Assembly: GCA_963806485.1 (NCBI GenBank)
Contig: CAWDXY010000001.1
Span: 270,212-334,211, forward strand
Reading direction: 5' to 3'
DNA from: an uncultured delta proteobacterium
Lineage (GTDB): Bacteria; Desulfobacterota; Binatia; Binatales; Binataceae
DNA: 64,000 nt
In this document: in pieces, positions 20-32,857 of the stretch
Layout: each line of letters opens with the position of its first letter
How positions within the stretch are numbered: position 1 is the stretch's first letter
Notes under the pieces: generated by a model
Told to the model about the DNA's origin: nothing
What the model saw: only the letters and a program-made list of their open reading frames with translations
Databases searched by the model: none
Made by a program: the position numbers and the translations under genes

Positions 20-1351
20 CTAATAGTAGTCGACCGGATCGATCTGGCGCTTGGCGCCCCAGTAGAAGAGCATGTTCTCGGTCAGGCCCTGCCAGGTGAA
101 CTTGCCGGGCGGCATCAGCAGCCGCTTGAACATCGACTTGAGCGAGTAGAACTCCTTGGTGCAGCGCCACACGCCTTCCTCGACTTCCTGCGGCGACATG
201 TTCTTGGGCACGAACATGCAGCGGAAGTTGTTGGTATAGAGGTCAGCGTCGGGGATTATCACGCGGCCTTCGTTCTCGAGCTGCGTGCGCATCGGCGTGC
301 CGACGCGCGGCGTCACCGTGTTGAAGAACGCCTCGGGCGCCTTGACCTCGTGCAGGAACTTCAGCGTGTCGTCGAAAATTCCCGGATGGTCCTCTTCCAG
401 CCCGAACAGGAAGTTGAGCGAATAGTAAATCCCGTGTTTTTCGAGCTTCTTGAGCAGCTTCTTATACTGCCCCGCGTGATTCTGAATCTTGTTCATCGAC
501 AGCAGGCTTTCCTGGCTGATCGATTCGACGCCGATGTTGACGTGGAAGATTCCCGCCTTGGCCGCCAGCTCGAGCAAATCATCGTCGTGATTCGAGTTGA
601 TCGTCCACAGGCATGAGAAGCGGATGTTGAGCGGCTCGAGCGCCTTGAACAGCTCGCGCGCGAACTTGTGCTTGCCGGTGATTTGATCGTCGATAAACTG
701 AAAGCGCTTGAAGCCGGTGATTTTGACGACCTGCTTGATCTCCTCGACGATGTCCTCAATCGGCCGCGTGCGATACGCGCCGTCGTAGAACACCGGAATC
801 TCGCAGAACGAGCATCGATACGGGCATCCGCGGCTCGCCTGCACCGGCACCGCCTTGAACAGGTAGCGATTGAGCTTGAGCAGCTCGTGGCGCGGGCGCG
901 GCAGGTTCTTCAGGTCGTGGACCTTGTCGGCCTTGTAAATTTGCTTGAGCTTGCCGTCGCGCCAGTCCTGCAGCAGTTCGGGCCAGACCAAATCCGCCTC
1001 GCCCTTCACGACCGCGTCGCAATGATGCAGCGCCTCTTCGGTCTGCAGCGTCGCATGGAATCCGCCGAAGACTACCGGGATGCCGCGTTTGCGGAACTCG
1101 TCGCCGAGCTGGTACGCGCGCAGCGACGCGCCGATAGTGGTCGTCATGCCGACCAGGTCCCATCCGCCGTCGAAGTTGATGTCCTCGAGACGTTCGTCAC
1201 ACAGCGTTACGTCGTATTCGTCAGGCGTCAGTCCCGCCATCAGCGGAATCATCAGCCCCATGATCAACCGCCATCGCGTCTTATGCGGCGTGCCGTCGAG
1301 ATGGACGGTCGTGGGTTGCACCAACAGGATTTTAGGCTTCTTACCGATCAT
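20..1351 (-). CDS. hpnJ: B12-binding radical SAM protein, hopanoid biosynthesis-associated (HpnJ-like)
   Basis: 443 aa. N-terminal B12-binding-like region, then CxxxCxxC (RGCPYRCSFC) radical SAM motif. Sits beside the hopanoid locus and the hpnK-like gene. Confidence 0.7.
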   Translation of the reverse strand: MIGKKPKILLVQPTTVHLDGTPHKTRWRLIMGLMIPLMAGLTPDEYDVTLCDERLEDINFDGGWDLVGMTTTIGASLRAYQLGDEFRKRGIPVVFGGFHATLQTEEALHHCDAVVKGEADLVWPELLQDWRDGKLKQIYKADKVHDLKNLPRPRHELLKLNRYLFKAVPVQASRGCPYRCSFCEIPVFYDGAYRTRPIEDIVEEIKQVVKITGFKRFQFIDDQITGKHKFARELFKALEPLNIRFSCLWTINSNHDDDLLELAAKAGIFHVNIGVESISQESLLSMNKIQNHAGQYKKLLKKLEKHGIYYSLNFLFGLEEDHPGIFDDTLKFLHEVKAPEAFFNTVTPRVGTPMRTQLENEGRVIIPDADLYTNNFRCMFVPKNMSPQEVEEGVWRCTKEFYSLKSMFKRLLMPPGKFTWQGLTENMLFYWGAKRQIDPVDYY

Positions 1352-1384
1352 ACTTCCTCCGCCTGTAAGATCTCGATTCCTCTC

Positions 1385-2569
1385 TTACAGGCTTTCAGCG
1401 GTTATCGAAGATGAGGTGCGGCCGGTAATCCATATCAAGACCGCGGCAAACACATAAGTGCCGAAGGCCGTTCCCCAAGCGAAGTACTCTAGCCGATTAA
1501 TCAAGGCCAATACCACGAGCATGTACGCGAAATCGCGCCCGCTCCATCGATCGACTTTGTCCAGCCACGCCGCCGCCTGCTCGCCTTTCACCTTGAAGGC
1601 GCGCATCGTGGCATACGCGCACATCGCGAATCCGCCAAGTTGAATCGGAATCAGATATAAATAAGCGGAGCTGTGCGCGACCCGGTAGCATCCGACCATC
1701 AGGCCGACGAACACCGCGACGTGCACGACATTGTCGGTGACGACGTCGAGCTTGCCGCCGAAATCGCTCTCGATCATTTTAAGGCGCGCCAGTTCGCCGT
1801 CGACGCCGTCGATAGTGATCGAAATTAAAAAGAAAATTGCCGCGAACAGGCGCATCCAGTAGTTCGGCACCGAGAACATCCATGCGCAAGCCAGCCCGAA
1901 CATCGTGTTTGCCACCGTGATCATGTTCGGCGTGACGCGCGTATACGACGCGAGCCAGTAGCTGATTCGCCACGACACGCGCCGGTCCACCCATCGCGCC
2001 ATCGGTGCGTCCTTGTGGGCCGATTCCTCGCGAATCGATTTCGCCAGCCGCAGTTCCGCTTCGTCGCGATCCTCGGGACGCCCATTCAGCGCGAACGGCA
2101 GCAGACTTGCCGCTGAGCCCGCGACTGTCGTCGAAATTCCCCCGCGCTTGAGAATCTCGCCGATCGGACCCGTCGCGATCTCGCCGCCGCGGTCGCGGTC
2201 GGTGCTGAATTCGCGATGAACGACTCGAGGATCGGAGTCGTGCGCGTCGAGAATCCGCGCCAGATGCGATTTGGCAAAAACCAGGTTCCCCGAAAACGAT
2301 ACGCACGGCGACGACGGTTCGATGCCCAATTCCTGTGCATTAGAATCGTTCAAAATTTCACCGAACGATTCGACCATCGAGACTGTGTCGTAATTTTTGA
2401 ACCGACCCATCGCGCGCGCCACGTCCGCGTACCGCTCGCGCGGCGCCGCCACGACGAACCGTTTAATCCCGGCACGCTCGCAATTAATCATCAGCCGCTC
2501 CAAAAGCGGGCGACCGAAGACCGCGTTGGTGGCACGATCGGGTGCAGCGATTAGAGCAGTTTCAATCAA
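1385..2569 (-). CDS. Bifunctional nucleotidyltransferase / CDP-alcohol phosphatidyltransferase (IPCT/DIPPS-like architecture)
   Basis: N-terminal MobA-like NTP-transferase fold (LIAAPD...GRPLLERL). C-terminal polytopic membrane domain has a perfect CDP-OH phosphotransferase motif: DGVDGELARLKMIESDFGGKLDVVTD = D-G-x2-A-R-x8-G-x3-D-x3-D. Confidence 0.6.
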   Translation of the reverse strand: MIETALIAAPDRATNAVFGRPLLERLMINCERAGIKRFVVAAPRERYADVARAMGRFKNYDTVSMVESFGEILNDSNAQELGIEPSSPCVSFSGNLVFAKSHLARILDAHDSDPRVVHREFSTDRDRGGEIATGPIGEILKRGGISTTVAGSAASLLPFALNGRPEDRDEAELRLAKSIREESAHKDAPMARWVDRRVSWRISYWLASYTRVTPNMITVANTMFGLACAWMFSVPNYWMRLFAAIFFLISITIDGVDGELARLKMIESDFGGKLDVVTDNVVHVAVFVGLMVGCYRVAHSSAYLYLIPIQLGGFAMCAYATMRAFKVKGEQAAAWLDKVDRWSGRDFAYMLVVLALINRLEYFAWGTAFGTYVFAAVLIWITGRTSSSITAESL

Positions 2570-2844
2570 CGTCGTCCTGTTAAAATCCGGTTTCCCCCGT
2601 CTTCCGCAATCGCGTCACCGTAACACAGCGGTAACGCTGGCGGAAGTAGCCCTACTACTAGCATCCACAGTTAATTATGAGTTCAACTTTCAATTGAAGC
2701 GAGAGTTTTTTCGGCTGGTCGGACCCGCCTTCGATGGGTTCTCTGAGGCACATAGTCGGTCGAGACCGCGGATTTTTCCTGGCTTGTTTTAGTTGATTAA
2801 CGAAGCTAGAGGCTGACCATCGCGGCTGTTAAACTGGCCGTTTC

Positions 2845-3573
2845 ATGGGCACGATCACCGCTCTGCTATTTGATTTCGGCGGCACGCTCGACGGGCCCGC
2901 GCATTGGCTCGACCGCTTTCTGGCCAGCTACCGGGCGGCGGGAATCGAAATTTCGCGCGCCGAGCTCGACCCGGCCTTCGAGCATGCGACCCGAATCGGC
3001 TACGGGGCGACCCGGGTGGTGGCGCGCTTCGGGCTGACGGACCTCGTGCGGTTCCTCGTCGGCCATCAATTCGAATACCTGCGGAAAAGCGGGCCGGAGC
3101 CGCTGCGGGCGACACTCGAGGCGTCGGGCGCCGCAGGACGTCATCGATTCGTCGAGGCCGTCACCAACTCTTTCGTCCGCGAGACGTCGGCCGGGCTGGC
3201 GCATAGCCGCGAGGTCATCGGCACGCTCAAACCCCGCTTCAAGATGGGCATCGTGTCGAACTTCTACGGAAACCTCGACCGCATCCTGGCCGAGGCGAAG
3301 CTCGATCGATTCTTCGCGGCGGTCGCCGATTCGTCGCGCGTTCAAATTTTCAAACCCGACCCGGCCATCTTCGAAGTCGCTTTGAAAAAAATACAATGTG
3401 CGCCCGAGTCCACTGCGATGATTGGCGATTCGCCCGCCAAGGATTGCGCGCCCGCGCACCGACTCGGGATGCGCACCGTCTGGCTGCGCACCGGCGCGCA
3501 AATGGGCGACGACGATGCTTCCGCCGACATCACGATTCGATCGATCGACGAAGTCGCGCAAATCCAGTGGTGA
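2845..3573 (+). CDS. HAD-superfamily hydrolase
   Basis: N-terminal motif I LLFDFGGTL and a later DxxxD-type motif (MIGDSPAKD). Its stop overlaps the GTG start of the next gene. Confidence 0.6.
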   Translation: MGTITALLFDFGGTLDGPAHWLDRFLASYRAAGIEISRAELDPAFEHATRIGYGATRVVARFGLTDLVRFLVGHQFEYLRKSGPEPLRATLEASGAAGRHRFVEAVTNSFVRETSAGLAHSREVIGTLKPRFKMGIVSNFYGNLDRILAEAKLDRFFAAVADSSRVQIFKPDPAIFEVALKKIQCAPESTAMIGDSPAKDCAPAHRLGMRTVWLRTGAQMGDDDASADITIRSIDEVAQIQW

Positions 3574-4298
3574 AGGAGTTACAAGGAGCGATTATCGCCG
3601 CCGGCCGCGGCGAGCGCCTGCGCGTCTCGACGCGCGACGATATGCCCAAGCCGCTGGTCAAGCTTGGCGGCGAGGCGATGCTCTCGCGGCAGGCGCGCGC
3701 GCTGCTCGACGCGGGCGCGTCGTCGGTGGTCGCGGTGATCAACTCAGAGACATCGCGGGTTGCGGGCGAGACAGCGCTCGAGATTCCGCCGTCGGTGCGG
3801 CTCGTCGTGCGCGACACCGCCAACTCGATGGAGACGATGCTCGCGCTGGGCGAGGTGCTCGAGCCGGGATGGTTTATCGCCGCGACGGTGGACGCTGTAA
3901 TTCCGCAGGCGGAATTGGCGCGTTTTGTTAATGAGTCGCGACGGAAAATCGAGGACTGTGCGGACAAAAATCTGACTGGCGTTCTGGCCGTCACGCGATG
4001 GCGCGGCGAGGCCAGGTCGCTTTTCGCAGATGTAACAGAAAACGGCTTGATCCAGGGGCTGGGTAGCAGTCAGACTTCTCTGGTAACGGCAGGACTATAT
4101 TTTCTGTCGACCCACATTTTCAACTTCGCCGCCGCCGATGCGCGTCGCACGGGCCTCGACGCACTCCGCCGCTTCCTCGCGCTGATCATCGAACGCGGGA
4201 TGCGGCTGGATGCGATCGAGATCGAAGGATCGATCGACGTCGATGAAGCGTCGGACCTCGACGCCGCGCGCCTCGCAATACGGGGGAAGATGCCATGA
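3570..4298 (+). CDS. Nucleotidyltransferase (sugar/alcohol-phosphate NTP-transferase family)
   Basis: GAIIAAGRGERL is a G-x-G-x-R-L nucleotide-binding motif. GTG start overlaps the upstream stop (GTGA). The long N-terminal extension in the ORF track was rejected because it overlaps the HAD gene. Confidence 0.55.
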   Translation: MKELQGAIIAAGRGERLRVSTRDDMPKPLVKLGGEAMLSRQARALLDAGASSVVAVINSETSRVAGETALEIPPSVRLVVRDTANSMETMLALGEVLEPGWFIAATVDAVIPQAELARFVNESRRKIEDCADKNLTGVLAVTRWRGEARSLFADVTENGLIQGLGSSQTSLVTAGLYFLSTHIFNFAAADARRTGLDALRRFLALIIERGMRLDAIEIEGSIDVDEASDLDAARLAIRGKMP

Positions 4299-5116
4299 GC
4301 TATCGAGCCTTGGGAATTTATCGGGAACCCGAGTTTTCACCGGGCAAGGTCGAGGCCGACGCCGCGATTCTCGACGCGACCCTGGCGGAACTGAAGCGCG
4401 AAGGCGTCGAGATCCAGGCGGTCGATGCGGTCAGCTTCGCGGCAGGCGCCGCGCCACGCGTCGATCTGGTGCTGCCGATGTGCCAGGGGCCGCGCGCGCT
4501 GAAGCGGCTGGCCGCAGTCGAGCAGGCGGGCGCGGTCGCGATCAACTCCGCGCTCTCGATTCGCAACTGTTACCGCGACTTGCTCGCGCCCGGCCTCGAG
4601 CGCGCCGGTGTTCCGACGCCGCCGGGCGCGCTCGTCGCGGCGGACGAGCCGCTCGACGCGCGCAAGCTGGCCGGCCTTGATTTGTCGGCGGGCGTGTTCG
4701 TCAAGCGCGGCGACTTGCATGCGCTCGCGCCCGAAGACGTGCATCACGCGACCGGTCGCGCCGAGATCGAGTCGATTTTGGCCAACTTCGCGCGGCGCGG
4801 AATCCGCTTCGCATACGTGCAGCAGGAGGTCGTCGGCCGCGTCGTCAAATTCTACGGCGTCGGCGGCAGTGCGCATTTCAGCGTGCATCCGGAGGGCGAG
4901 GAAGTCGCCGAAGCCGCTGTGCGCGCGCTGTCGGAAGCGGCTTCGGCTGCTGCCGGCGCGCTCGGACTCGAAGCGTGGGGCGGAGACGCGGTCTTGAGTG
5001 GCGATCGTTTTGCGATTATCGATTTTAACGACTGGCCCAGCTACAGTCGCGTGCGCGGACCGGCCGCTCGCGCGATTGCGCGCCGTGCGATAAGTCTGCT
5101 GGGTCGCCCGCGCTAG
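4295..5116 (+). CDS. ATP-grasp fold protein (RimK/Ddl-like)
   Basis: ATGA start overlaps the upstream stop. A central region (GVPTPPG...FVKRGD) and C-terminal IIDFNDWPS resemble the ATP-grasp Mg/ATP site (E-x-N..PG). Confidence 0.4.
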   Translation: MSYRALGIYREPEFSPGKVEADAAILDATLAELKREGVEIQAVDAVSFAAGAAPRVDLVLPMCQGPRALKRLAAVEQAGAVAINSALSIRNCYRDLLAPGLERAGVPTPPGALVAADEPLDARKLAGLDLSAGVFVKRGDLHALAPEDVHHATGRAEIESILANFARRGIRFAYVQQEVVGRVVKFYGVGGSAHFSVHPEGEEVAEAAVRALSEAASAAAGALGLEAWGGDAVLSGDRFAIIDFNDWPSYSRVRGPAARAIARRAISLLGRPR

Positions 5117-5162
5117 AAATCGCGCGCCGGTAATTCAAACGAGGAATCGAATCGCACAGCAT

Positions 5163-6527
5163 TTGATGACAACCACCAACGGAAAGCTTCCTTCAATCAA
5201 AACCGCAGTTCCGGGACCCAAGTCGAAGGAGATCTTCGACCTCGAACAAAAATATATCGCGCCGGGCCGCCAGCGAATCTCGCTGCTGGCCGGTCTCGCG
5301 TTCGATCATGGCGAGGGCGCGACGCTCACCGACGCCGACGGCAACACCTACGTCGATTTCTTCGCGGGAGTGGCGGTCGCAAGCCTTGGCCATGCGCATC
5401 CGGGGCTCGCGCAGGCGCTGTCGAAGCAGGCGTCGCGCCTAATAGTCGGCACCTTTGCGACCAAGGAGCGCGCCGCCGCGTTCAAAGCGTTGGCCGAAAT
5501 CGCGCCCGCGGGACTTACTCGCGCACATCTATATAGCGGCGGCGCCGAGGCGGTCGAAGCAGCGCTCAGGCTGGCGCGTTCCGCGACCGGCAAGCATGAG
5601 GCGGTGAGTTTCTGGGGCGGCTTCCATGGCAAGAGCGGCGGCGTTTTGGGACTTATCGGCGACGAATCGAAGCAAGGCTACGGGCCGTTGCAGGGTGGCC
5701 AGTACACCGTTCCGTATGCGGACTGCTATCGATGCCCGTTCAAGTTGAAGTATCCCGACTGCGGGCTCTACTGCGTCGATTTCGCGCGCCAGCAGATCAA
5801 GATGAGTTCCAGCGGCGCGCTCGCCGCGATCGTCGCCGAGCCGATGCAGGGCACGGCGGGCAACGTGATTCCGCCCGACGACTGGCTGCCCGCGGTCAAG
5901 TCGGTCGCCAAGGATTTCGGCGCGCTGCTGATTGCCGACGAAATGATCACCGGCTTCGGACGCACCGGAAAATGGTGGGGCGTCGAGCATAGCGGCACTC
6001 GTCCGGATATCGTCACGGTCGGCAAGGGGATGGGTTCGGGATTTCCGGTTTCGGGCGTGCTGCTGAGCGACGAGCTGGGCAAGGCGGAGCCGTTCGGCAA
6101 GCCGAGCGCGTCGTCGTCGAGCTACGGCGGAAATCCGCTGGCGGCGGTCGCCGTGTCGGAAACGATCGGCGCAATTCAGCGGCAGCATCTGGTCGAGAAC
6201 TCGCGCAACGTCGGCGCGATGATGCTGTCGCGGCTGGTGCAGCTCAAGGAAAAATACGAATTTATCGGCGACGTGCGCGGCAAGGGGCTGCTGATCGGCG
6301 TCGAACTGGTGCGCGACCTCGAAAGCAAGGAACTGCTCGGCAAAAAAGTCACCGAGCTGATCTTCTCCGAGTGCCTGAAGCGCGGGCTGGTGATGATGGC
6401 CTACTTTCCCAAGATTCGAATCAATCCCTCGCTGGTGATCACCGAAGCGCAGGCCGAGGCGGGCGTCGAGATTCTGGACGAAGTGTTCGCGCACGTTCGC
6501 GACCACGTTGACTGGCGCAACGCGTAA
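5163..6527 (+). CDS. Class III (acetylornithine/ornithine/GABA-type) PLP aminotransferase, possible HpnO analog
   Basis: 454 aa with typical class III aminotransferase N-terminus and PLP-lysine region (TVGKGMGSGFP). HpnO of hopanoid clusters belongs to the same class. Confidence 0.65.
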   Translation: MMTTTNGKLPSIKTAVPGPKSKEIFDLEQKYIAPGRQRISLLAGLAFDHGEGATLTDADGNTYVDFFAGVAVASLGHAHPGLAQALSKQASRLIVGTFATKERAAAFKALAEIAPAGLTRAHLYSGGAEAVEAALRLARSATGKHEAVSFWGGFHGKSGGVLGLIGDESKQGYGPLQGGQYTVPYADCYRCPFKLKYPDCGLYCVDFARQQIKMSSSGALAAIVAEPMQGTAGNVIPPDDWLPAVKSVAKDFGALLIADEMITGFGRTGKWWGVEHSGTRPDIVTVGKGMGSGFPVSGVLLSDELGKAEPFGKPSASSSSYGGNPLAAVAVSETIGAIQRQHLVENSRNVGAMMLSRLVQLKEKYEFIGDVRGKGLLIGVELVRDLESKELLGKKVTELIFSECLKRGLVMMAYFPKIRINPSLVITEAQAEAGVEILDEVFAHVRDHVDWRNA

Positions 6528-6543
6528 GCGAAATCTTTTTCTG

Positions 6544-7017
6544 ATGGCCAATCCGAATGGCAACGCGGCGCTGTTTTTCGATCTCGGCGGCACTCTCGTC
6601 AAGCTGAACGAGTCGCGCGAGATTCCGCTCGACGCCGACGGCAATATCGTAATCGAACTGCTACCCGGCGTGGCCGACAAGCTTCGGCCCTTGCATAACC
6701 ATCTGATGTTCGTCGTGACCAACCAGGCGGGAATCCGGCGCGGCCGTCTGACAGCTGAGAAAGTCGAAGCCGCGCTCGAGGAGCTCGACAATCGGCTCGG
6801 CGATATCCTGACCGGATGGCAGGTCTGCCCGCATACCGACGACGACAATTGCGAATGCCGCAAGCCGAAGGGCGGCATGATTACGGAGCTCGCGGATTTG
6901 TACGGCGTCGATTTGGCGTCGTCGACAATGGTCGGCGATCAGGAAGTCGACCGGCTGGCAGGCGAAGCAGCGGGCGTCGCGAAGTTCGTCGCGGCGGCGG
7001 AATTTTTTCGATGGTAG
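6544..7017 (+). CDS. HAD-IIIA phosphatase (GmhB / histidinol-phosphatase-like)
   Basis: FFDLGGTLV motif I and the Cys cluster CPH..C.CRKPK typical of GmhB-like phosphatases. Start chosen at the ATG at 6544 to avoid a 20-nt overlap with the aminotransferase. Confidence 0.6.
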   Translation: MANPNGNAALFFDLGGTLVKLNESREIPLDADGNIVIELLPGVADKLRPLHNHLMFVVTNQAGIRRGRLTAEKVEAALEELDNRLGDILTGWQVCPHTDDDNCECRKPKGGMITELADLYGVDLASSTMVGDQEVDRLAGEAAGVAKFVAAAEFFRW

Positions 7018-7165
7018 TAGGGAAGGGGAAATCACTTTATTTAACGTGAAACCCACGGTGGGTTTCACACTTCCTTCGGCAGGGGTGACCCCTGCACCCG
7101 GTACTAAGATAAAAAAGATGCGGGACTTCGTCCCTGTTAGAAGTTTGTTAGGGGGACGTTCTTCC
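7018..7165. repeat. Three-hairpin REP/MITE-like intergenic repeat, copy A
   Basis: Starts right after the TAG stop. Palindrome GTGAAACCC-N-GGGTTTCAC, invariant core GGCAGGGGTGACCCCTGCACCC (7078-7099), third hairpin GGGACTTCGTCCC. Also at 8315-8445, 34395-34530, 50965-51035, 59221-59310 and inverted at 59420-59480. Confidence 0.8.
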
Positions 7166-7372
7166 CCTCTCCCTGCAAGGGAGAGGATTAAGGTGAGGGT
7201 CCTAATTCAGCGCGCGATTTTTCCGCGCGCGATTCAAGATTCTGTTTCCTTCTGAAGGGGGTCCCTCGCGTACTTCCGAAACAGAGGCAGAATCTTAAAT
7301 CGCGCGCCAGAAAAAGGCGCGCTGAATAAGGACCCTCACCTTCAATCCTCTCCCATTCTGGGAGAGGGGAAG
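7161..7372. repeat. Long imperfect inverted-repeat element (about 56-bp arms, about 100-bp spacer), MITE-like
   Basis: Left arm 7161-7216 and right arm 7316-7372 are near reverse complements (CCCCTCTCCC..GGAGAGGATTAAGGTGAGGGTCC..ATTCAGCGCGCG). Each arm has its own small hairpins; the spacer has further palindromes (AAGATTCTG/CAGAATCTT). Confidence 0.7.
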
Positions 7373-7462: not shown

Positions 7463-8314
7463 ATGAAAATTGGATTGCTGACGCCGTTCACGGGTAAAAA
7501 TGCTCATCCGGCGGAATTTGCGCGCGTTGCCGAGTCGCTTGGGTTCGAGTCGATTTGGGTGCCGGAGCATCCCGCGATGCCCGCTAATCCCATCCAGCAG
7601 TTTCCGACCGGAGGGCCGATTCCGCCGCAGTACTTCACTATGGCCGATCAGATGGTCGCGCTTAGCATGGCGGCTGCCGTTACCAAAAATCTGAAACTTG
7701 CCACCGGGATCTGTCTCGTGCCGGAGCATGAGCCGCTTGCGCTGGCCAAGCAGATCGCGACTCTGGATACATTCTCGGGCGGCCGCGTGCTGTTCGGAAT
7801 TGGCGCGGGATGGCTGCGCGAGGAGAGCGATTTGTTCGGCGTCGATTTCCCCCATCGCTGGAGCGAAACCGCTGAGATTGTCGCCGCGATGCGCAAGCTG
7901 TGGACCGAAGATCAATCGTCGTTCGACGGCAAGTACGTCAAGTTTCCGGCGGTGAAGTCGCTGCCGAAGCCGGCGCAGAAATCGGGGCCTCCCGTGCTGA
8001 TCGGCAGCCTGGACAAGAACGCGCTCAAGCGCGTGGCGAAGTGGGCCGACGGATGGTGCCCGATCGCGTTGAACGCGGCGCAATTAAAAACGCGCGTCGA
8101 TGAACTCAAGCGCGAGTGCACGGCGGCCGGCAGGAATTTCGCGGAGTTGGATATCACGATCATGGGCGGGATCCGCGGCGATCGCGCGCAGGTGCAGGAC
8201 GGGCTGAAGGAGTTTGCCGCGGCGGGCGCGGGCCGGTTTGTCGCGGGGTTGGGAGAACTTACTTTCGAGAGTGCGGAAGGGACATTGAAGAAGATCGCTG
8301 GGTTATACGTTTAG
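7463..8314 (+). CDS. LLM-class flavin(F420/FMN)-dependent oxidoreductase (luciferase-like)
   Basis: 283 aa with a TIM-barrel luciferase-like monooxygenase pattern (GFESIWVPEH, GICLVPEH, GIGAGW). Confidence 0.7.
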   Translation: MKIGLLTPFTGKNAHPAEFARVAESLGFESIWVPEHPAMPANPIQQFPTGGPIPPQYFTMADQMVALSMAAAVTKNLKLATGICLVPEHEPLALAKQIATLDTFSGGRVLFGIGAGWLREESDLFGVDFPHRWSETAEIVAAMRKLWTEDQSSFDGKYVKFPAVKSLPKPAQKSGPPVLIGSLDKNALKRVAKWADGWCPIALNAAQLKTRVDELKRECTAAGRNFAELDITIMGGIRGDRAQVQDGLKEFAAAGAGRFVAGLGELTFESAEGTLKKIAGLYV

Positions 8315-8883: not shown

Positions 8884-9915
8884 GTGGCTAGCAAATCAAA
8901 ACTGCGGGGGGCTTTTTCCGGGTTTGGGGAGGTCGCCGCGCGGGCTCATCTGCCGGCGTGGCGCTTGCGTGAGAATGTTTCCATCGGCGTGGTTCACGAA
9001 CCTGTTTCCGAGCGGCGGCATGAGGCTATTCGGCTTATCAAGAGCGTTCGCGTGTATGACGACCTCGAGCTGATGCTTGATGGCGAGGCGCCTGATTTTG
9101 TGGATGTTGCGAGCCCGCCGGGGATGCATCATCAGGCTGCTCTCGCTGCGTTGGCCGCGGGGGCGCATGTGATTGTCGAAAAGCCGCTTGCGCTTTCGCT
9201 TGGCGAGTTCGATGAGTTGGCTGCGCTCGCGGCGGAGAAGGGGCGCGTTCTGATGTGCGTCCACAATTGGAAATACGCGCCGTCGTATGCGGCTGCGCGC
9301 CGCGCGATCGAGGCGGGCAGGCTGGGCAATATTCGATTTGTGTCGATCGATCGGCTCAGGACCGAGCCCGCCGGCGCTGGCGGCAGCGGCGGGAAGTGGC
9401 GGGCGTCGGCGGCGTCGGGGGGCGGGATTCTGATCGATCACGGATGGCACGTCTTCTACCTTATGTATTGGCTTCTGAGCGGCGAAAAACCGGTGTCGGT
9501 TTCGGCGCGGCTCGAATCGCCGGCGGGTGTGGACGTCGACGATGTTGCGGACGTGCGAATCCGTTTCGCGAGCGGAGCGTTCTCTCGAGCACATCTTTCG
9601 TGGCGCGCGCCTGTGCGGAGGACGTCGGCGCTCATCTATGGCGAGCGCGCGTGTATCGAGATTGAGGGGGATCGGGTGACGCTTACCGATCGGTCGGGAA
9701 AGATCGAAGACCTGTCGGAGACGGATATGGCCGACGACTCGTACCATTCGGCATGGTTCGGCGGAGTGGCAGAGGAGTTCGAGCGAGCGGTCACCGAAGG
9801 AACCAATTCCGTGGTCGCGAAGCGTAACTTGGCGGAGGCGCGTGTTGCACTGGTGCTAATCGACGGGGTGCGGAAGTCATCTATTAGCAGCGGCGTCGAG
9901 ATAAATCTCTCGTAA
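8884..9915 (+). CDS. Gfo/Idh/MocA-family NAD(P)-dependent oxidoreductase
   Basis: N-terminal Rossmann GFGEVA motif and a conserved EKP-loop (VIVEKPLA). Confidence 0.7.
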   Translation: MASKSKLRGAFSGFGEVAARAHLPAWRLRENVSIGVVHEPVSERRHEAIRLIKSVRVYDDLELMLDGEAPDFVDVASPPGMHHQAALAALAAGAHVIVEKPLALSLGEFDELAALAAEKGRVLMCVHNWKYAPSYAAARRAIEAGRLGNIRFVSIDRLRTEPAGAGGSGGKWRASAASGGGILIDHGWHVFYLMYWLLSGEKPVSVSARLESPAGVDVDDVADVRIRFASGAFSRAHLSWRAPVRRTSALIYGERACIEIEGDRVTLTDRSGKIEDLSETDMADDSYHSAWFGGVAEEFERAVTEGTNSVVAKRNLAEARVALVLIDGVRKSSISSGVEINLS

Positions 9916-10104: not shown

Positions 10105-10815
10105 GTGGCCACGGGCGACGACAGGAGTAGAGCGGGGGTCGGAAGCCGGGATATGGGCGTTTCGCAGATCAAAGTGGGCATCGCGGAGCCGCGGACGATG
10201 TCGCAGGACTCGCGCGACGAGATCCTGAAGGCGGCGATGCGGCTGTTTGCGAGTCGCGGGTTTCATGAGACGTCGATGTCGGAAGTGGCGCGCGAGGCGC
10301 ACGTCAGCAAGGCGCTGATTTTCTGGCATTTCAAGACCAAGGAAGAGCTGTTCGTGGCGGTGTTGAACCGTTTGCTGGAGCCGTACTTTATCGATTTTGC
10401 GGAAGAAGCGGCGGTGATGGACGAGCGCGCGCAGATCGAGAAGCTGGTCGAATCGTACCTGTCGTTCGTGCGCGACAACGCGAGCTCGGTGCGATTTTTC
10501 CTGGCGCAGATGCTCCACGATCAGAAGCTCTCGGAGAGCCTGAACGAGCAGGTGCTCAAGCTTTACAGCGGGTATCGCGCGATGCTGATCGAGCTTATCG
10601 GGAGCGCGCAGCAGAAGGGACTCTGCACGCGGCGGACGGCGCCTGAGTCGGCGGCGGCGTTCCTGCTGTCGGCGCTGAACGGATTGCTGATCGAATATTT
10701 GTTTTTGGGCGCAAATGCGATCGACCCCGAAGGCGCGGTCGCCATGGTGGGCGAGTGGCTGTTCGGTCCGTCGGCGACATCTACATCGGAGGGCGGCGGC
10801 ACGCCGTCCTTCTAA
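10105..10815 (+). CDS. TetR/AcrR-family transcriptional regulator
   Basis: N-terminal HTH (ILKAAMRLFASRGFHETSMSEVAREAHVSKALIFWHFKTKEEL). Start uncertain; an internal Met is possible. Confidence 0.7.
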   Translation: MATGDDRSRAGVGSRDMGVSQIKVGIAEPRTMSQDSRDEILKAAMRLFASRGFHETSMSEVAREAHVSKALIFWHFKTKEELFVAVLNRLLEPYFIDFAEEAAVMDERAQIEKLVESYLSFVRDNASSVRFFLAQMLHDQKLSESLNEQVLKLYSGYRAMLIELIGSAQQKGLCTRRTAPESAAAFLLSALNGLLIEYLFLGANAIDPEGAVAMVGEWLFGPSATSTSEGGGTPSF

Positions 10816-10846
10816 ACTTTTTTCTTCAACCTGATCCAGGAGAGCT

Positions 10847-11851
10847 ATGCGCATTCCGCTGAGACAGATGATCGACTTGGGACGCTACATCCGCGCGAAG
10901 AAGCGGGCGGGCGAAAAATATTTTCCACTGGTACTGATGCTCGAACCGCTGCATGCGTGCAACCTGGCGTGTATCGGATGCGGGCGAATCGTCGAATACA
11001 AGGACACCATCCGCGACATGATGCCGCTGGACGAGGCGCTGCATTCGGCGGAGGAGGCGGGCGCGCCGATCGTGTCGATCTGCGGCGGCGAGCCGCTGAT
11101 GTACAAGCATATCGCGGCGCTGACGCGCGGGCTGATCGAGGATCAGAAGCGTCACGTGATGATCTGCACGAACGCAATTCTGCTCGAGCGATTCGTCAAG
11201 CAGGTGCCGCCCAGTCCGTACCTGAGCTTCAACCTGCACCTGGACGGGATGCGCGAGACCAACGATCGCGTGACCGACCGGCAGGGGCATTTCGACATCG
11301 TGGTGAAGATGATCAAGATGCTGAAGGAGAAGGGCTACCGGGTGCAGACCAACACGACGGTGTTCCGCGAGACCAGCGGCCAGGAGCTCGAGGACATGGT
11401 CAAGTACCTGACCAGCCTGGGTGTCGACGGGATGCTGCTCAGTCCCGGCTATCACTACCAGGTGCTGCAGAACGACGACGAGTATCTGAAGAAGGAAGAG
11501 ATGCCGGCGAAGTTCTTCAAGGTTCGCGACATGGCGAACGACTACAAGATAATCAACACGCCGATCTACCTGGACTACCTGGTCGGCAAACGCGACATGC
11601 AGTGCAGTCCGTGGACGACGGTGACGCGCAATCCGCAAGGATGGAAAGGGCCTTGCTACCTGATCACGAACGGGCACTATAAGACGCTCGACGAGATGCA
11701 CGCGGCGACGGATTGGGAGTACTATCGCACCAAGCAGGACTTTCGCTGCCGCGACTGCAAACTGCATTCGGGATTCGAAGGCACCGTGGCGCTCGAGTTC
11801 GGGAAGAATCTGAAGGACTCGTGGCGGATGGTGCGGCATTACGTGGCGTGA
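10847..11851 (+). CDS. hpnH: Adenosyl-hopene transferase HpnH (radical SAM)
   Basis: CNLACIGC radical SAM motif near the N-terminus, about 334 aa, sits just upstream of the shc cluster. Confidence 0.8.
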   Translation: MRIPLRQMIDLGRYIRAKKRAGEKYFPLVLMLEPLHACNLACIGCGRIVEYKDTIRDMMPLDEALHSAEEAGAPIVSICGGEPLMYKHIAALTRGLIEDQKRHVMICTNAILLERFVKQVPPSPYLSFNLHLDGMRETNDRVTDRQGHFDIVVKMIKMLKEKGYRVQTNTTVFRETSGQELEDMVKYLTSLGVDGMLLSPGYHYQVLQNDDEYLKKEEMPAKFFKVRDMANDYKIINTPIYLDYLVGKRDMQCSPWTTVTRNPQGWKGPCYLITNGHYKTLDEMHAATDWEYYRTKQDFRCRDCKLHSGFEGTVALEFGKNLKDSWRMVRHYVA

Positions 11852-21335: not shown

Positions 21336-22235
21336 ATGCATCTGCTGCTGTCCACGATCGCGCTGCGCCCGTATGTGTTCATCTTCCTGGCGAGTTTTCT
21401 GTTTATTGCAGTTGTGAACTTCGGTCTGCGCACGACGTTGCTGTTTACGGTGCTGACCTACGCCGTGTCGCTCGCGTGCGAGTGGTCTTCGGTCCACAAC
21501 GGATTCCCATTCGGGCTGTATCACTATATAGACGCGACCCGCGCGCGCGAGATTTGGGTGTTCGGCGTGCCGTTCATGGATTCGCTGTCGTTCACGTTCC
21601 TCGCGTTCGCCAGCTACACGGTCGCGCTGTTGCTCAGTTCGCCGCTTTATCGGCGCGGTGCTGATATTCGGATTCTTGACACGTGGGAGATTCGCCGCGC
21701 GCCGCGCGTATGGCTGATGGCGGCGCTGTTCATGGTGATGGTGGATATGGTCGTCGATCCGCTGAGCGTGCTCGGCGAAAGATGGTTCCTAGGCAAAATT
21801 TTCTGGTACGACCCGCCAGGCCCGCACTTTGGCGTGCCGATCAGCAACTATCTCGGATGGTATTTCGTCGCCACGATCACGATTGCGATTTTCCAGTGGC
21901 TCGACGCTGCGTTCAATCGCGGTGCGACCAAGCCGGCGGGCTCGCTTCCCGTCATGCCCTCGCGTGCGCTGCTGGGTCCGGCGCTCTACGCGGGGATCGT
22001 GATCTTCGGAATCGAGATGCTGTTCCGAGTCGACGCGCCGAATATCGGGTGGGCCGCGGTCTTTATCTACCTGCCGTTCACGGTGCTCGCGATTCATATC
22101 CTCACCCGCCGCGAATCCTGGGGCGACGCCGCCGCCATCGAACGCCATCTCGCGGATTTTCCCTACGAGCGCGATCTTCCCGTCTGGAAGCCAACGAGCG
22201 ATCGCAAGCACGAGTTGCGCCGCGCCACCGCGTAG
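21336..22235 (+). CDS. Polytopic membrane protein, carotenoid/hopanoid-cluster-associated (DUF422-like)
   Basis: 299 aa with about 7 predicted TM helices, embedded between hpnA and an SDR. Family assignment is tentative. Confidence 0.5.
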   Translation: MHLLLSTIALRPYVFIFLASFLFIAVVNFGLRTTLLFTVLTYAVSLACEWSSVHNGFPFGLYHYIDATRAREIWVFGVPFMDSLSFTFLAFASYTVALLLSSPLYRRGADIRILDTWEIRRAPRVWLMAALFMVMVDMVVDPLSVLGERWFLGKIFWYDPPGPHFGVPISNYLGWYFVATITIAIFQWLDAAFNRGATKPAGSLPVMPSRALLGPALYAGIVIFGIEMLFRVDAPNIGWAAVFIYLPFTVLAIHILTRRESWGDAAAIERHLADFPYERDLPVWKPTSDRKHELRRATA

Positions 22236-22312: not shown

Positions 22313-23107
22313 ATGCTGCTCAAGGACAAAGTTGCGTTGATAACGGGCGCGGGTTCGGGAATCGGCCGCGCCAGCGCGATTCGGTTCGCGCAAGAGGGCG
22401 CGAAGCTGATGGTCGCCGATGTGCGCGCGGAAACGGCGAGCAATACCGCGGCTGAAATCGAAAAGGCGGGCGGCGTCGCGAAATCGATATCGGTGGACGT
22501 GCGCATCGGCGCCGAAGTCGAGCGCATGGTCAACGAAACCATCGCCGCGTTCGGCCGTCTCGACATCCTGTTCAACAACGCCGGCGTCTTCGTGCCGAAA
22601 AGCGTGGTGGACACGAGCGAGGAAGAATGGGACTGGGTCGTGGACGTGTGCCTGAAAGGCGTATTTTTCGGGTGCAAGTATGCGATCCCGCAAATGATCA
22701 AGCAGGGCGGCGGTGTGATCATCAACACCGCCAGCGGCGCGGGCATCGAAGGCGTGCCGAATCTCGGCGCCTACCAGGCGGCGAAGGGCGGCGTCGTTAT
22801 TATGTCGAAGGGGATCGCGCTCGACTTCGCGCGTCACAAGATTCGATGCGTGTCGATTTGTCCGGGCGTGATCGAAACGCCGATCGCCGAGAATTGCAAC
22901 ACCGTTCCAGCCGGCGCGTCGCAGTTGGTTTGGGAGCGCACCGGCAACATGCATCCGCTCGGGCGCAACGGCAAGCCCGAAGAGGTCGGTGCGCTGGCGG
23001 CGTTCCTCGCGTCGGACGAGGCGGGCTTCATCACGGGCGTCGCGGTGCCGATTGACGGCGGTTTCAGCGCGGGCGCTTTCGCGCCGCCGGCGCGAGAGCA
23101 CGCCTAG
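22313..23107 (+). CDS. Short-chain dehydrogenase/reductase (SDR)
   Basis: TGAGSGIGRA cofactor motif, NNAG, catalytic YxxxK (YQAAKGG). Confidence 0.8.
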   Translation: MLLKDKVALITGAGSGIGRASAIRFAQEGAKLMVADVRAETASNTAAEIEKAGGVAKSISVDVRIGAEVERMVNETIAAFGRLDILFNNAGVFVPKSVVDTSEEEWDWVVDVCLKGVFFGCKYAIPQMIKQGGGVIINTASGAGIEGVPNLGAYQAAKGGVVIMSKGIALDFARHKIRCVSICPGVIETPIAENCNTVPAGASQLVWERTGNMHPLGRNGKPEEVGALAAFLASDEAGFITGVAVPIDGGFSAGAFAPPAREHA

Positions 23108-23867
23108 CCGCCGCGGGAACCTTGCCGTCGTGCGCGATGGCCGTGAGCGCGTCGGCGATTGCGGCAGTCGCGCGCGAGAGGTTGCGAATCATCCGCGGCA
23201 GCTTGAGCATCGCGCCCGGATTACGCAGCAGGTAGGACGTCGCGGCCAGCGGCCGCACGTTGCCGTTTTCGTCGGCCATCTCCGCGCCAACTATCTCCTC
23301 GTCAACTTCGTCGAGCACCGCGCGAATCGCCACGAACGGGAGTCCGCGCACGGCGGCTTCCGCGCCTATCGCGGCGGTTTCCATGTCCACGGCGATCGCA
23401 CCGGTGCTTTCCTTGGCGCGGCGTTTCTCGGCACCCGTCGCGAGCACGCGATGCGATGTCAAAATCGCGCCGGTCGAGTATGCGATGCCTGCGGACGCAA
23501 GCGCGCGGCCGGTTGCGCGCAAATGCGCGTCACTCGCGACTGTCACTTGTTCTGCAACTCCTCCGCCGGCATCAATTGTCAAAACGCGGTCGCATAGGAC
23601 GAGGTCGCCCGGCTTGAGTCCACTCGAAAGCGCGCCGACGACGCCGGTCCCGATTACCAACTCCGCCCCGGGCATCAGATCGAACGCGCGGCGCGCGGTT
23701 TCGGCCGCGCGGCGGTGACCGATCCCGTGCCCGACAACGGCAAACTGTTTGCCGTCAATCTCCGCGCGAAAGCCATGTAAACCGTCGAGAGCGAGCGGAG
23801 CGCGATTTCGCAGCCGGCGCTTGAAGGGCGCGATCTCGCGCGCGAAGGCGTAGAACAGAAGAATCAA
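23064..23867 (-). CDS. hpnG: Hopanoid-associated phosphorylase/nucleosidase HpnG (PNP/MTAN superfamily)
   Basis: MTA/SAH-nucleosidase-like fold (GTGVVGAL, AIAVDMETAAIG), 267 aa, inside the hpn locus. Confidence 0.75.
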   Translation of the reverse strand: MILLFYAFAREIAPFKRRLRNRAPLALDGLHGFRAEIDGKQFAVVGHGIGHRRAAETARRAFDLMPGAELVIGTGVVGALSSGLKPGDLVLCDRVLTIDAGGGVAEQVTVASDAHLRATGRALASAGIAYSTGAILTSHRVLATGAEKRRAKESTGAIAVDMETAAIGAEAAVRGLPFVAIRAVLDEVDEEIVGAEMADENGNVRPLAATSYLLRNPGAMLKLPRMIRNLSRATAAIADALTAIAHDGKVPAAARRALAPAARKRPR

Positions 23868-23972: not shown

Positions 23973-24833
23973 TTGAAGCGCCTGATCGTTAACGCCGACG
24001 ATTTCGGCTTGTCGCCCGAGGTCAACGCCGGCATCATGCGCGCGCGTCGCGACGGAATTTTGCGCAGTGCGAGCCTGATGGTCGCCGAGCCTGCCGCGCG
24101 TGCCGCCGCCGAGTTGGCGCGTGACGATCCCGCGCTCGACGTGGGGCTGCATGCCGTTGTCTGCCGGGGACGCAGTGTGCTCGACGCCTCGAGGCTTGGC
24201 GCCGCGGTCAGCGCCTCGGGCGAGTTCATCGACAGTCCCGTGACTGCGGGGATGCGATATTTTTTCGACCGCTCGATGCGCGCCGCGATGACCGACGAGC
24301 TGCGCGCGCAGGTCGAGCGGCATCTCGAGCTGGTCGGCTATCTCAACCATATCGACGGCCATCTGAACTTCCACGTCCATCCGCTGTTCGCCGATATTCT
24401 GGTTGACCTCGCCGTGGAATACAAAGTGCCGTGCATCAGGCTGCCGCGCGAGCGGGTGATGACGACGATCCGCCTGCGCCGCGACAATGCGCCCCGCAAG
24501 CTCGTCGAGTCGATCATTTTCCGCACGCTGTCGCGCCGCACCCGCCGCATGATGGCGGAACGAGGCCTCACCTCGACCGACGCGCTGTTTGGACTTCATC
24601 AGAGCGGTCATCTCAGCGAGGACTATGTCGTAGGCGTGATCGATCGCATCCGCGACGGCGTGACAGAGCTTTATTTTCATCCGGCCGCCGATATCGGCGG
24701 AGTCCCGCCCGCGCCCGAGGCGCAGCTCGAGGTCGAGATTCTCACCGGCGCGCGTGTGCGCGACGCGATCGCTCGAAATGGAATCGAGCTGATCACGTTT
24801 GCCGAGCTTGCGAAGAGCAAAATCGCGGCTTGA
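23973..24833 (+). CDS. hpnK: YdjC-family polysaccharide-deacetylase-like protein HpnK
   Basis: LIVNADDFGLS N-terminus is typical of YdjC/HpnK. TTG start. Confidence 0.75.
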   Translation: MKRLIVNADDFGLSPEVNAGIMRARRDGILRSASLMVAEPAARAAAELARDDPALDVGLHAVVCRGRSVLDASRLGAAVSASGEFIDSPVTAGMRYFFDRSMRAAMTDELRAQVERHLELVGYLNHIDGHLNFHVHPLFADILVDLAVEYKVPCIRLPRERVMTTIRLRRDNAPRKLVESIIFRTLSRRTRRMMAERGLTSTDALFGLHQSGHLSEDYVVGVIDRIRDGVTELYFHPAADIGGVPPAPEAQLEVEILTGARVRDAIARNGIELITFAELAKSKIAA

Positions 24834-32292: not shown

Positions 32293-32857
32293 GATTGCTC
32301 CAATTTTTTTAGATTTTTTAGAATAGTCAGCCTTGAGCCACAATTCCGGTGCTCACGCTCGCGTGTCAAGGCCGAAGTGAAATCCGATACCGCTTCAATT
32401 TTGGTAAGAGGACTCTCTTTCCGCATCCGGTTCCCCTTTCCCGCGCGGGCCCGAAAAAAGGGGTTAGGGGTTAGGTTCCTGGACCGGATTCAGCGGTCAG
32501 GGTGGTACGAGCCTGGCGACGGCGGGATGTCGGGGGAAGCCGTCGTAGCCGTGGTCGTGAAGAAAGTTTGCGTGCACCTGCGCCAGCAGGAAGGCGTCGA
32601 TCAGTATCGCGACAAATATAGCGGCGATGAATCGGTACCCGCCCGGCTGGGGAGCATCGCGCGTGGCCATAAGAACTATTAATAGCACGAAGCCGGTTTT
32701 GGCGCAGTGGCGCTATTTCATTGCCTCGGCCAGAATATTAGGATGCTCGCAATCCCCACTGGCCGATTGGTCAGGCGGGGATAATCGAGACCGAAGATTA
32801 GCGAATTGCGCGCGAATGCGTCGCGGGTCTGAAAAACGCGGCGCTGGAGGGAATCTA

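Follow-up and report, generated by a model that had tools for sequence, protein, structure and literature searches.

What does a membrane-bound cytidine diphosphate (CDP)-alcohol phosphotransferase produce when its gene stands next to a hopanoid cluster? The question is raised by a stretch of 64,000 nucleotides from an uncultured member of the Binataceae (GenBank assembly GCA_963806485.1, contig CAWDXY010000001.1, positions 270,212 to 334,211), hereafter designated as the window and numbered from its first letter. According to the names of near-identical proteins, the host belongs to Candidatus Binatus, in the class Binatia. A first-pass annotation of this DNA had recognized seven open reading frames (ORFs) between positions 20 and 7017, and proposed that they activate an alcohol or sugar phosphate, aminate or ligate it, and transfer it as a phospho-alcohol headgroup, possibly to a hopanoid. 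Here, profile, fold and neighbourhood analyses suggest that this block is the Binataceae form of a widely conserved, Kennedy-like CDP-alcohol cassette for a polar-lipid headgroup, inositol-derived and amine-bearing, a reading to which we give about an even chance of being correct.

Genetic organization of the locus

All seven ORFs are present where they had been placed, and the stop/start overlaps GTGA (3570-3573) and ATGA (4295-4298) reported for the divergent operon were read in the sequence. A Gfo/Idh/MocA dehydrogenase gene lying beyond the 20-7017 interval had been overlooked; it belongs to the same unit, since the gene order conserved across phyla (see below) includes it. Domains were called by Pfam and NCBIfam profile scans, and folds by matching AlphaFold models to PDB structures. 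The locus comprises the following features:

20-1351, minus strand: B12-binding radical S-adenosylmethionine (radical-SAM) protein, immediately downstream of the CDP-alcohol transferase (Pfam Radical_SAM, 68.8 bits)
1385-2569, minus strand: membrane CDP-alcohol phosphotransferase with an N-terminal cytidylyltransferase-like domain (394 residues; PF01066, 52.9 bits)
2570-2844, no strand: divergent intergenic region between the transferase/radical-SAM pair and the operon running from the first to the second haloacid dehalogenase (HAD) gene, read directly
2845-3573, plus strand: HAD-IA hydrolase of the REG-2/CTE7-like type (Pfam Hydrolase and HAD_2; best models TIGR02253 and TIGR02252, below cut-off)
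3570-4298, plus strand: stand-alone nucleotidyltransferase (NTP-transferase; NTP_transf_3, 38.4 bits), signature G-R-G-E-R-L ... K-P-L intact
4295-5116, plus strand: ATP-grasp-fold protein of an undescribed family (AlphaFold model; no Pfam family)
5163-6527, plus strand: class-III (omega-type) aminotransferase (PF00202, Aminotran_3, 308 bits)
6508-7017, plus strand: HAD-IIIA phosphatase-like protein, motif FFDLGGTLV (TIGR01656, 84.8 bits against a cut-off of 84.15; alternative ATG at 6544)
7463-8314, plus strand: F420-dependent LLM-class oxidoreductase (TIGR03619, 246.5 against 166.9)
8884-9915, plus strand: Gfo/Idh/MocA NAD-dependent dehydrogenase (Pfam GFO_IDH_MocA and C-terminal domains)

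A gene order conserved across phyla

Relatives of the transferase were searched among 50%-identity representatives, which returned 114 clusters at E <= 1e-30, with full-length relatives at 30-52% identity; as a tblastn query against plasmids, the same protein gave zero matches. A scan of one genome per GTDB species led to a set of 80 loci, 24 from Binataceae and 56 from other lineages, which were then searched with the window proteins and whose neighbourhoods were defined as 10 kb on either side.

These loci revealed a conserved order consisting of the HAD-IA gene (with a DxGGT motif), the NTP-transferase, the ATP-grasp-like protein, the class-III aminotransferase, the Gfo/Idh/MocA dehydrogenase and the CDP-alcohol transferase, often followed by an HpnL-like membrane protein (PF03706). 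This order occurs in Binatia, Syntrophobacterales, Elusimicrobia, Nitrospira and Acidobacteriota, as well as in Verrucomicrobiae, Thermoanaerobaculia, Methylomirabilota, Alphaproteobacteria and Chloroflexia, and at least three cassette genes were detected in 33 of the 56 non-Binataceae neighbourhoods. Of all cassette proteins, the aminotransferase is conserved best from phylum to phylum (48-60% identity). Within the cassette, its gene is always flanked by those of the ATP-grasp-like protein and the Gfo dehydrogenase, the latter being its direct neighbour in about 28 loci from many phyla. The Binataceae have added to this framework the HAD-IIIA gene, which among the 80 loci is confined to their own, a tightly linked radical-SAM gene, and the F420 oxidoreductase, which is inserted between the aminotransferase and Gfo genes in 10 Binataceae loci, is absent from non-Binataceae cassettes, and implies the use of coenzyme F420, perhaps for an extra redox step.

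The neighbours of the cassette point to inositol and to membranes. A myo-inositol-1-phosphate synthase (MIPS) gene was found beside it in 19 of the 56 non-Binataceae loci, bearing out the inositol-phosphate connection suggested by the first-pass annotation. An HpnL-like protein accompanies the cassette most often (36/56), and five 50%-identity clusters contain it as a fusion with the transferase. Lipid transport genes of the MMPL and MlaC types also recur, and no sugar mutase or kinase is conserved nearby in the related loci.

Hopanoid genes are part of this environment as well. Of the 56 non-Binataceae loci, 14, representing at least seven lineages, have robust ones no more than 10 kb from the transferase, and so do several Binataceae, so that the physical tie noted in the window recurs elsewhere. 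HpnJ (728-762 bits) and HpnI (317 bits) were recognized in these loci above curated cut-offs, and squalene-hopene cyclase (SHC), HpnH, HpnK and HpnA by similarity (37-62% identity). By a rough estimate, this co-localization is far above chance, with 25% observed against a few per cent at most. The usual order in such loci is transferase, HpnL-like gene, then HpnK, HpnI or HpnJ. The genes hpnI, hpnK, hpnJ and hpnL repeatedly adjoin members of the transferase family. No cassette gene falls in any described hpn family, and the radical-SAM protein of the window is not HpnJ (see below). In locus L072, a single strand carries SHC, an ABC protein, an HpnM-like gene, a second NTP-transferase, an HpnL-like gene, MIPS, the transferase, HAD, NTP-transferase, ATP-grasp-like, aminotransferase and Gfo genes, a CopD-like gene and an HpnN-like gene. 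Its second NTP_transf_3 gene (6518-7264) lies beside the HpnL-like and MIPS genes. With scores of 105-151 bits, the HpnL-like neighbours stay below their cut-off (195.65), as do the HpnM- and HpnN-like ones below theirs.

The membrane transferase and its N-terminal domain

In the transferase, the CDP-OH_P_transf match spans residues 212-369, with a gathering threshold of 22 bits, and the complete motif D254xxD257G258xxA261R262x8G271xxxD275xxxD279 announced by the first-pass annotation was confirmed. This motif is invariant in aligned relatives of 28-50% identity and was found in 73 of 76 family ORFs. The three best NCBIfam models, IPCT/DIPPS, archaetidylinositol-phosphate synthase and PIP synthase, all describe inositol-phosphate enzymes. 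The AlphaFold model (pLDDT 85.9) shows about six transmembrane helices and matches, across both domains, the IPCT-DIPPS structure 4mnd (E 4.6e-11) and AF2299.

The N-terminal domain, taken alone, matches the folds of KdsB, IspD and GlmU at E of about 1e-4, and gave no nucleotidyltransferase profile match in Pfam or NCBIfam. The GxGxR signature is missing from all 76 family ORFs and from all of 24 diverse aligned relatives, the window protein reading ALIAAPDRATN. The bifunctional, IPCT/DIPPS-like domain order initially proposed therefore stands at the fold level, through 4mnd and AF2299, but the transferase is probably not bifunctional, because the fused domain has no catalytic signature; we regard that domain as cytidylyltransferase-like but probably structural or regulatory rather than catalytic.

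Two known proteins can be compared with it. IPCT/DIPPS (4mnd; NF041135), known from di-myo-inositol-phosphate synthesis, is the best fold match (TM-score 0.60) and the best NCBIfam match, and it shares the same domain order and the inositol-phosphate context seen in relatives of the window transferase. In contrast, the NF041135 score is 79.3 bits, where 580 are required, and the model aligns with the C-terminal domain alone (residues 184-380, on model positions 224-414), the window protein lacks GxGxR, and its type of gene context indicates a lipid rather than a solute. AF2299 of Archaeoglobus fulgidus (PDB 4o6m/4o6n/4q7c) is the best PDB sequence match (59 bits, E 2.8e-15) and likewise combines a cytidylyltransferase-like cytosolic domain with a six-helix CDP-alcohol transferase; the fold match has E 2e-9 and a TM-score of 0.56-0.67, but 18% identity over the fold alignment. 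Unlike the window protein, AF2299 is archaeal, uses a soluble CDP-glycerol-type donor (PMC4634129) and has no associated cassette. Second, divergent CDP-alcohol transferase paralogues were observed in loci L017 (8851-9957) and L031 (14145-15512).

The cytosolic enzymes

The stand-alone NTP-transferase, whose GTG start overlaps the stop of the HAD gene, retains the signatures that the fused domain lacks and is therefore likely to be the working cytidylyltransferase of the pathway. A 454-residue protein, P0232, combines an NTP-transferase with the ATP-grasp-like protein; this fusion may be a gene-call artefact.

For the product of 4295-5116, no Pfam family was found at E <= 0.01, and the weak profile matches were Ins134_P3_kin (E 0.012-0.28), RimK (0.008) and LysX (0.0085). 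The ATP-grasp assignment nevertheless holds, because the AlphaFold model (pLDDT 85, predicted TM-score (pTM) 0.81) matches the D-Ala-D-Ala ligase Ddl (3r5x; E 2e-13, TM-score 0.67), as well as DcsG, ArgX/LysX and RimK (TM-score about 0.65). Residues K137, R138, G229-G230-D231, D243 and N245 are invariant across phyla, and K137, R138, D231, D243 and N245 form, by analogy, the predicted Mg/ATP site. When a broad profile of the family was compared with the PDB, the matches were PsnB (7.6e-7), ITPK4 (5e-4) and ITPK1 (9e-3). Judged by these profiles, the family lies about equally near peptide-type ligases and inositol-phosphate kinases, and the protein would be either a ligase or an inositol-phosphate-kinase-like enzyme.

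The two HAD proteins share an unusual feature. In the HAD-IA protein, motif I reads FDFGGTLD, with a glycine at the Asp+2 position, and this DxGGT form is conserved in its orthologues from every phylum examined, as well as in Prevotella. As in the HAD-IIIA protein, the general acid that classical HAD phosphatases carry at Asp+2 is missing. The HAD-IIIA protein had been called GmhB-like, which is correct for the superfamily; the GmhB equivalog cut-offs are missed (84.2 against 178 and 66.2 against 149.6 bits), motif I is DLGGT and not DxDGT, and the histidinol-phosphatase domain model TIGR01656 is barely reached.

The aminotransferase had been assigned to the HpnO class, which is accurate as far as class III is concerned. 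Its best equivalog is PRK05769 (355 against 552 bits), its best PDB match is 7vno (248 bits), and no HpnO model figured among the NCBIfam matches of the window proteins. A pairing with a Gfo dehydrogenase has not been described for hpnO (PMC12583986). The best NCBIfam match of the Gfo protein is the inositol 2-dehydrogenase IolG, at 71.7 bits far under the cut-off of 355, and its best PDB match is 6nor (93 bits), which we take to be the gentamicin 3''-dehydrogenase GenD2.

Relationship with an inositol lipid cluster of Bacteroidetes

A "putative alternative inositol lipid cluster" has been described in Bacteroides (Phocaeicola) vulgatus and Prevotella, consisting of MIPS, an NTP-transferase, a CDP-alcohol phosphatidyltransferase and a HAD hydrolase, which were proposed to convert CDP-inositol and diacylglycerol into phosphatidylinositol (Heaver et al. 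2022, PMC9246714). Inositol sphingolipids occur in species that have only this alternative cluster and not BT_1522/23/25, the enzymes being unconfirmed (PMC9246714). With the ATP-grasp-like protein as a query, homologues were detected in Prevotella nigrescens, Parabacteroides distasonis, Phocaeicola massiliensis and Bacteroides finegoldii. In P. nigrescens, the operon comprises an NDP-sugar synthase, a hypothetical protein (the ATP-grasp-like homologue), a CDP-alcohol phosphatidyltransferase, a HAD hydrolase, an inositol-3-phosphate synthase and a DUF5686 protein; the first four genes are found in the same order in P. distasonis, with no inositol-3-phosphate synthase in the stretch examined. 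BLASTP analyses of the window proteins against their P. nigrescens counterparts gave 2e-20 for the NTP-transferase (25% identity), 1e-32 for the ATP-grasp-like protein (33%), 8e-34 for the HAD protein (29%, with the same DxGGT) and 2e-6 for the transferase, in the catalytic region only.

The two systems thus share homologous NTP-transferase, HAD(DxGGT) and ATP-grasp-like genes, together with a CDP-alcohol transferase in the same operon; MIPS adjoins many relatives of the window cassette too, and a PF03706 protein is near both (PMC9246714). In contrast to the window, the Bacteroidetes cluster has an adjacent MIPS gene but no Gfo dehydrogenase, class-III aminotransferase, hopanoid genes or B12 radical-SAM gene, and its transferase is shorter (318 residues), has no cytidylyltransferase-like N-terminal domain and aligns weakly. 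These differences bear on the ATP-grasp-like enzyme, for which a ligation had been envisaged. Such a role, considered here as ligation to the new amine or its acylation, was rejected: because the Bacteroidetes cluster keeps the gene and contains neither aminotransferase nor Gfo dehydrogenase, the protein belongs to the core and probably does not acylate an amine.

A possible route to an aminocyclitol headgroup

The proposed pathway would start from inositol phosphate, or from free inositol released by the HAD enzyme. The Gfo-type dehydrogenase would oxidize one ring hydroxyl of inositol or inositol phosphate, and the class-III aminotransferase would turn the ring ketone into an amine, yielding an inosamine-type cyclitol. 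Using CTP, the stand-alone NTP-transferase would activate the cyclitol phosphate as CDP-cyclitol, from which the membrane transferase would move the phospho-cyclitol to a membrane alcohol, with the release of cytidine monophosphate. More speculatively, the phosphate may be repositioned before CDP activation by a kinase and a phosphatase working as a pair, namely the ATP-grasp-like and HAD(DxGGT) proteins. The Binataceae HAD-IIIA protein, F420 oxidoreductase and B12 radical-SAM enzyme would presumably further tailor the headgroup or the lipid, the last of these presumably by methylation or rearrangement. Candidate acceptors are diacylglycerol, ceramide-type lipids and bacteriohopanepolyols.

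The idea of a headgroup pathway based on activation and phospho-alcohol transfer is plausible, less a catalytic N-terminal domain and a ligation by the ATP-grasp protein, both of which are improbable. Its amination steps recall known oxidation-transamination pairs (IolG with an aminotransferase; NtdC/NtdA/NtdB), in which a Gfo dehydrogenase also stands beside a pyridoxal phosphate-dependent aminotransferase with a HAD protein in the operon; however, the window aminotransferase is of class III and not of the DegT type, the scores are far below cut-off, and the likeness is one of logic only. No description of the cassette, of a CDP-alcohol transferase in hopanoid loci, or of aminoinositol lipids was found in the full texts searched. 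What is new over the known CDP-alcohol pathway for inositol lipids is the amination module, the cytidylyltransferase-like N-terminal domain and the recurrent hopanoid linkage.

Several observations weigh against this scheme. Since no cassette enzyme reaches any curated NCBIfam equivalog cut-off, its substrates are those we infer from context, and the roles given to the ATP-grasp-like protein, both DxGGT HAD proteins and the radical-SAM enzyme are guesses. The best matches of the NTP-transferase are sugar-1-phosphate nucleotidyltransferases (AglF, archaeal GlmU and MurU), not IPCT. Neither MIPS nor an HpnL-like gene was found in the 64-kb window or in any examined Binataceae locus, so that the inositol link for this host rests on orthology with other lineages. 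The Bacteroidetes alternative cluster is itself functionally unconfirmed (PMC9246714). Finally, only about six transmembrane helices are predicted here, three to four fewer than lipid-acceptor CDP-alcohol transferases usually have (PMC4634129).

Inositol lipids are considered rare in bacteria. The cassette suggests an amination-extended, Kennedy-like CDP-cyclitol route spread over many uncultured soil and sediment phyla, and indicates two overlooked core components, the ATP-grasp-like protein and the DxGGT-type HAD protein, for the unconfirmed alternative pathway of Bacteroidetes. Possible new lipid biomarkers containing nitrogen and phosphorus would be relevant to geobiology. The recurrence of the cassette in hopanoid loci beside hpnL, hpnK, hpnI and hpnJ also offers a testable lead on the function of HpnL, which two hopanoid surveys of 2025 give as unknown (PMC12324291, PMC12583986); one of the two saw no additional candidates in the surroundings of alphaproteobacterial hpn clusters.

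Hopanoid genes of the window

Downstream of the Gfo gene, the window carries a hopanoid array in the order HpnH, farnesyl diphosphate (FPP) synthase, zinc-dependent alcohol dehydrogenase, SHC, Dxr, HpnC, HpnD, HpnE and HpnA, where SHC scores 706 against 431 bits and HpnC, HpnD, HpnE and HpnA are each above their NCBIfam cut-offs. The array provides context, and its belonging to the same pathway as the cassette is only putative. The features are as follows:

10105-11851, plus strand: TetR regulator (10105-10815) and true HpnH (379 against 225 bits)
23064-23867, minus strand: HpnG-like gene, HpnG being the best match, below cut-off (101 against 187)
23973-24833, plus strand: true HpnK (247 against 232.6)
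32627-34369, plus strand: true HpnR, hopanoid C-3 methylase (855 against 650)

The link to hpnJ, hpnK, hpnG and hpnH drawn by the first-pass annotation is therefore sound for HpnH and HpnK, holds for HpnG at sub-threshold level, and fails for hpnJ. Neither HpnJ nor HpnI was found in the 64-kb window, which has a true HpnK; in Alphaproteobacteria, hpnI, hpnJ and hpnK were reported to be all present or all absent (PMC12583986). In two other Binatia loci (L028 and L038), the order is transferase, HpnL-like gene and, directly thereafter, HpnK. The occurrence of HpnR suggests that the Binatus host can make 3-methylhopanoids, a trait that is mostly considered in connection with methanotrophs and acetic acid bacteria. 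A CruF/Caroten_synth-like membrane protein is encoded in or beside the hopanoid cluster both in the window (21336-22235, plus strand) and in the unrelated lineage of L072 (944-1789, minus strand).

Alternative explanations

A special case of the favoured lipid-headgroup reading, and the main idea of the first-pass annotation, is that the acceptor is a hopanoid, with a phospho-(amino)cyclitol headgroup placed on bacteriohopanetetrol (BHT) or on a BHT-glucosamine or BHT-cyclitol ether and an HpnL-like protein as a partner. The product would then represent a new class of composite bacteriohopanepolyol. In the window, the cassette directly adjoins the array running from TetR and HpnH to HpnA and is read in the same direction, with HpnK, HpnR and the HpnG-like gene within 30 kb, and the hopanoid genes near 14 of the 56 non-Binataceae relatives argue in the same direction, as does L072, where the cassette and MIPS lie on a single strand between SHC/HpnH and an HpnN-like transporter; HpnL, for which the surveys cited above give no known function, would find one here. 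However, 42 of the 56 related loci and most Binataceae loci have no hopanoid gene within 10 kb, and the HpnL-, HpnM- and HpnN-like neighbours all fall under the curated hopanoid cut-offs. Prevotella, Parabacteroides and Bacteroides (Bacteroidota) are not known hopanoid producers. The homologous core found in these genera, with an inositol-3-phosphate synthase beside it in P. nigrescens, is tied there to inositol glycerolipids and sphingolipids (PMC9246714), and the literature searched yielded no phosphate-containing bacteriohopanepolyol. The block is thus conserved in part apart from hopanoids, which the first-pass annotation had named as evidence against its proposal, and we consider a hopanoid acceptor possible but doubtful. 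A still more specific version, in which an AF2299-like transferase and an HpnL-like protein put a phospho-inosamine headgroup on bacteriohopanepolyols and the radical-SAM enzyme remodels it in Binataceae, seems unlikely; if true, it would reveal, in bacteria of soils and sediments, a new class of hopanoids containing both phosphorus and nitrogen, and a first function for HpnL.

A soluble phosphodiester of the di-myo-inositol phosphate or diglycerol phosphate type could also be made, by joining CDP-cyclitol to an alcohol phosphate and having a HAD enzyme remove the extra phosphate. The domain architecture and the best structures lead to IPCT-DIPPS and AF2299, which have hydrophilic pockets for soluble donors and acceptors and use soluble CDP-alcohol donors (PMC4634129), and a transferase with just about six transmembrane helices, two HAD-type enzymes in the operon and the association with MIPS in relatives would all suit a solute. 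Yet both HAD proteins are devoid of the Asp+2 general acid typical of phosphatases, the hosts are represented by mesophilic metagenome-assembled genomes from soil and sediment rather than by hyperthermophiles, and the occurrence of the homologous cluster in Bacteroidetes goes along with that of inositol lipids (PMC9246714). An HpnL-like membrane protein adjacent or fused to the transferase, and MMPL, MlaC and hopanoid genes as recurrent neighbours, argue that the product is a lipid and make a soluble inositol-phosphate solute less likely; we hold the latter to be improbable. The same judgement applies to a sugar substrate, in which an NDP-hexose or hexose phosphate would be oxidized and transaminated following the logic of kanosamine biosynthesis or gentamicin 3''-amination, and the amino-sugar phosphate delivered to an envelope glycoconjugate or lipid. 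In its favour are the sugar-1-phosphate nucleotidyltransferases as best matches of the NTP-transferase, and 6nor as that of the Gfo protein in the PDB; the Gfo dehydrogenase, aminotransferase and HAD protein together parallel NtdC/NtdA/NtdB, and gentamicin biosynthesis includes a B12 radical-SAM methyltransferase after a similar amination. However, the aminotransferases of those sugar pathways belong to the DegT class and not to class III, the best family matches of the transferase are inositol-phosphate enzymes, and the recurrent biosynthetic neighbour is MIPS, with no sugar mutase or kinase conserved nearby.

The radical-SAM gene

The gene at 20-1351 had been identified as hpnJ, an assignment that was not upheld: its product scores 79.2 bits against the HpnJ model TIGR03471, whose cut-off is 577.6, and is 25% identical to the true HpnJ of locus L038, which, with that of L032, reaches 762 and 728 bits, respectively. 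Its best NCBIfam match is BchE (107.8 against a cut-off of 481), and in Pfam the B12-binding domain (28.4 bits) and a DUF4070 tail (19.7 bits, E 9e-4) are below cut-off.

The pair formed by the transferase gene and this radical-SAM gene occurs in 21 of the 24 Binataceae loci (84-98% identity), and also in Syntrophaceae (L037, 41%) and Zetaproteobacteria (L049 and L054, 38-39%). Over the Binataceae loci L002-L023, the radical-SAM protein is 84-98% identical, compared with 45-96% for the adjoining cassette proteins, an unusually strong constraint. P0305, a 718-residue fusion of a radical-SAM protein with the transferase, was considered as support for their partnership and set aside, its radical-SAM part being unlike both that of the window and HpnH; it shows only that some radical-SAM enzyme can fuse to this transferase family. 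On the 3' side of the radical-SAM gene and outside the window, locus L001 encodes a 104-residue membrane protein (5692-6006) that is kept in nine Binataceae loci and has a weak YnfA/UPF0060 match (E 0.001).

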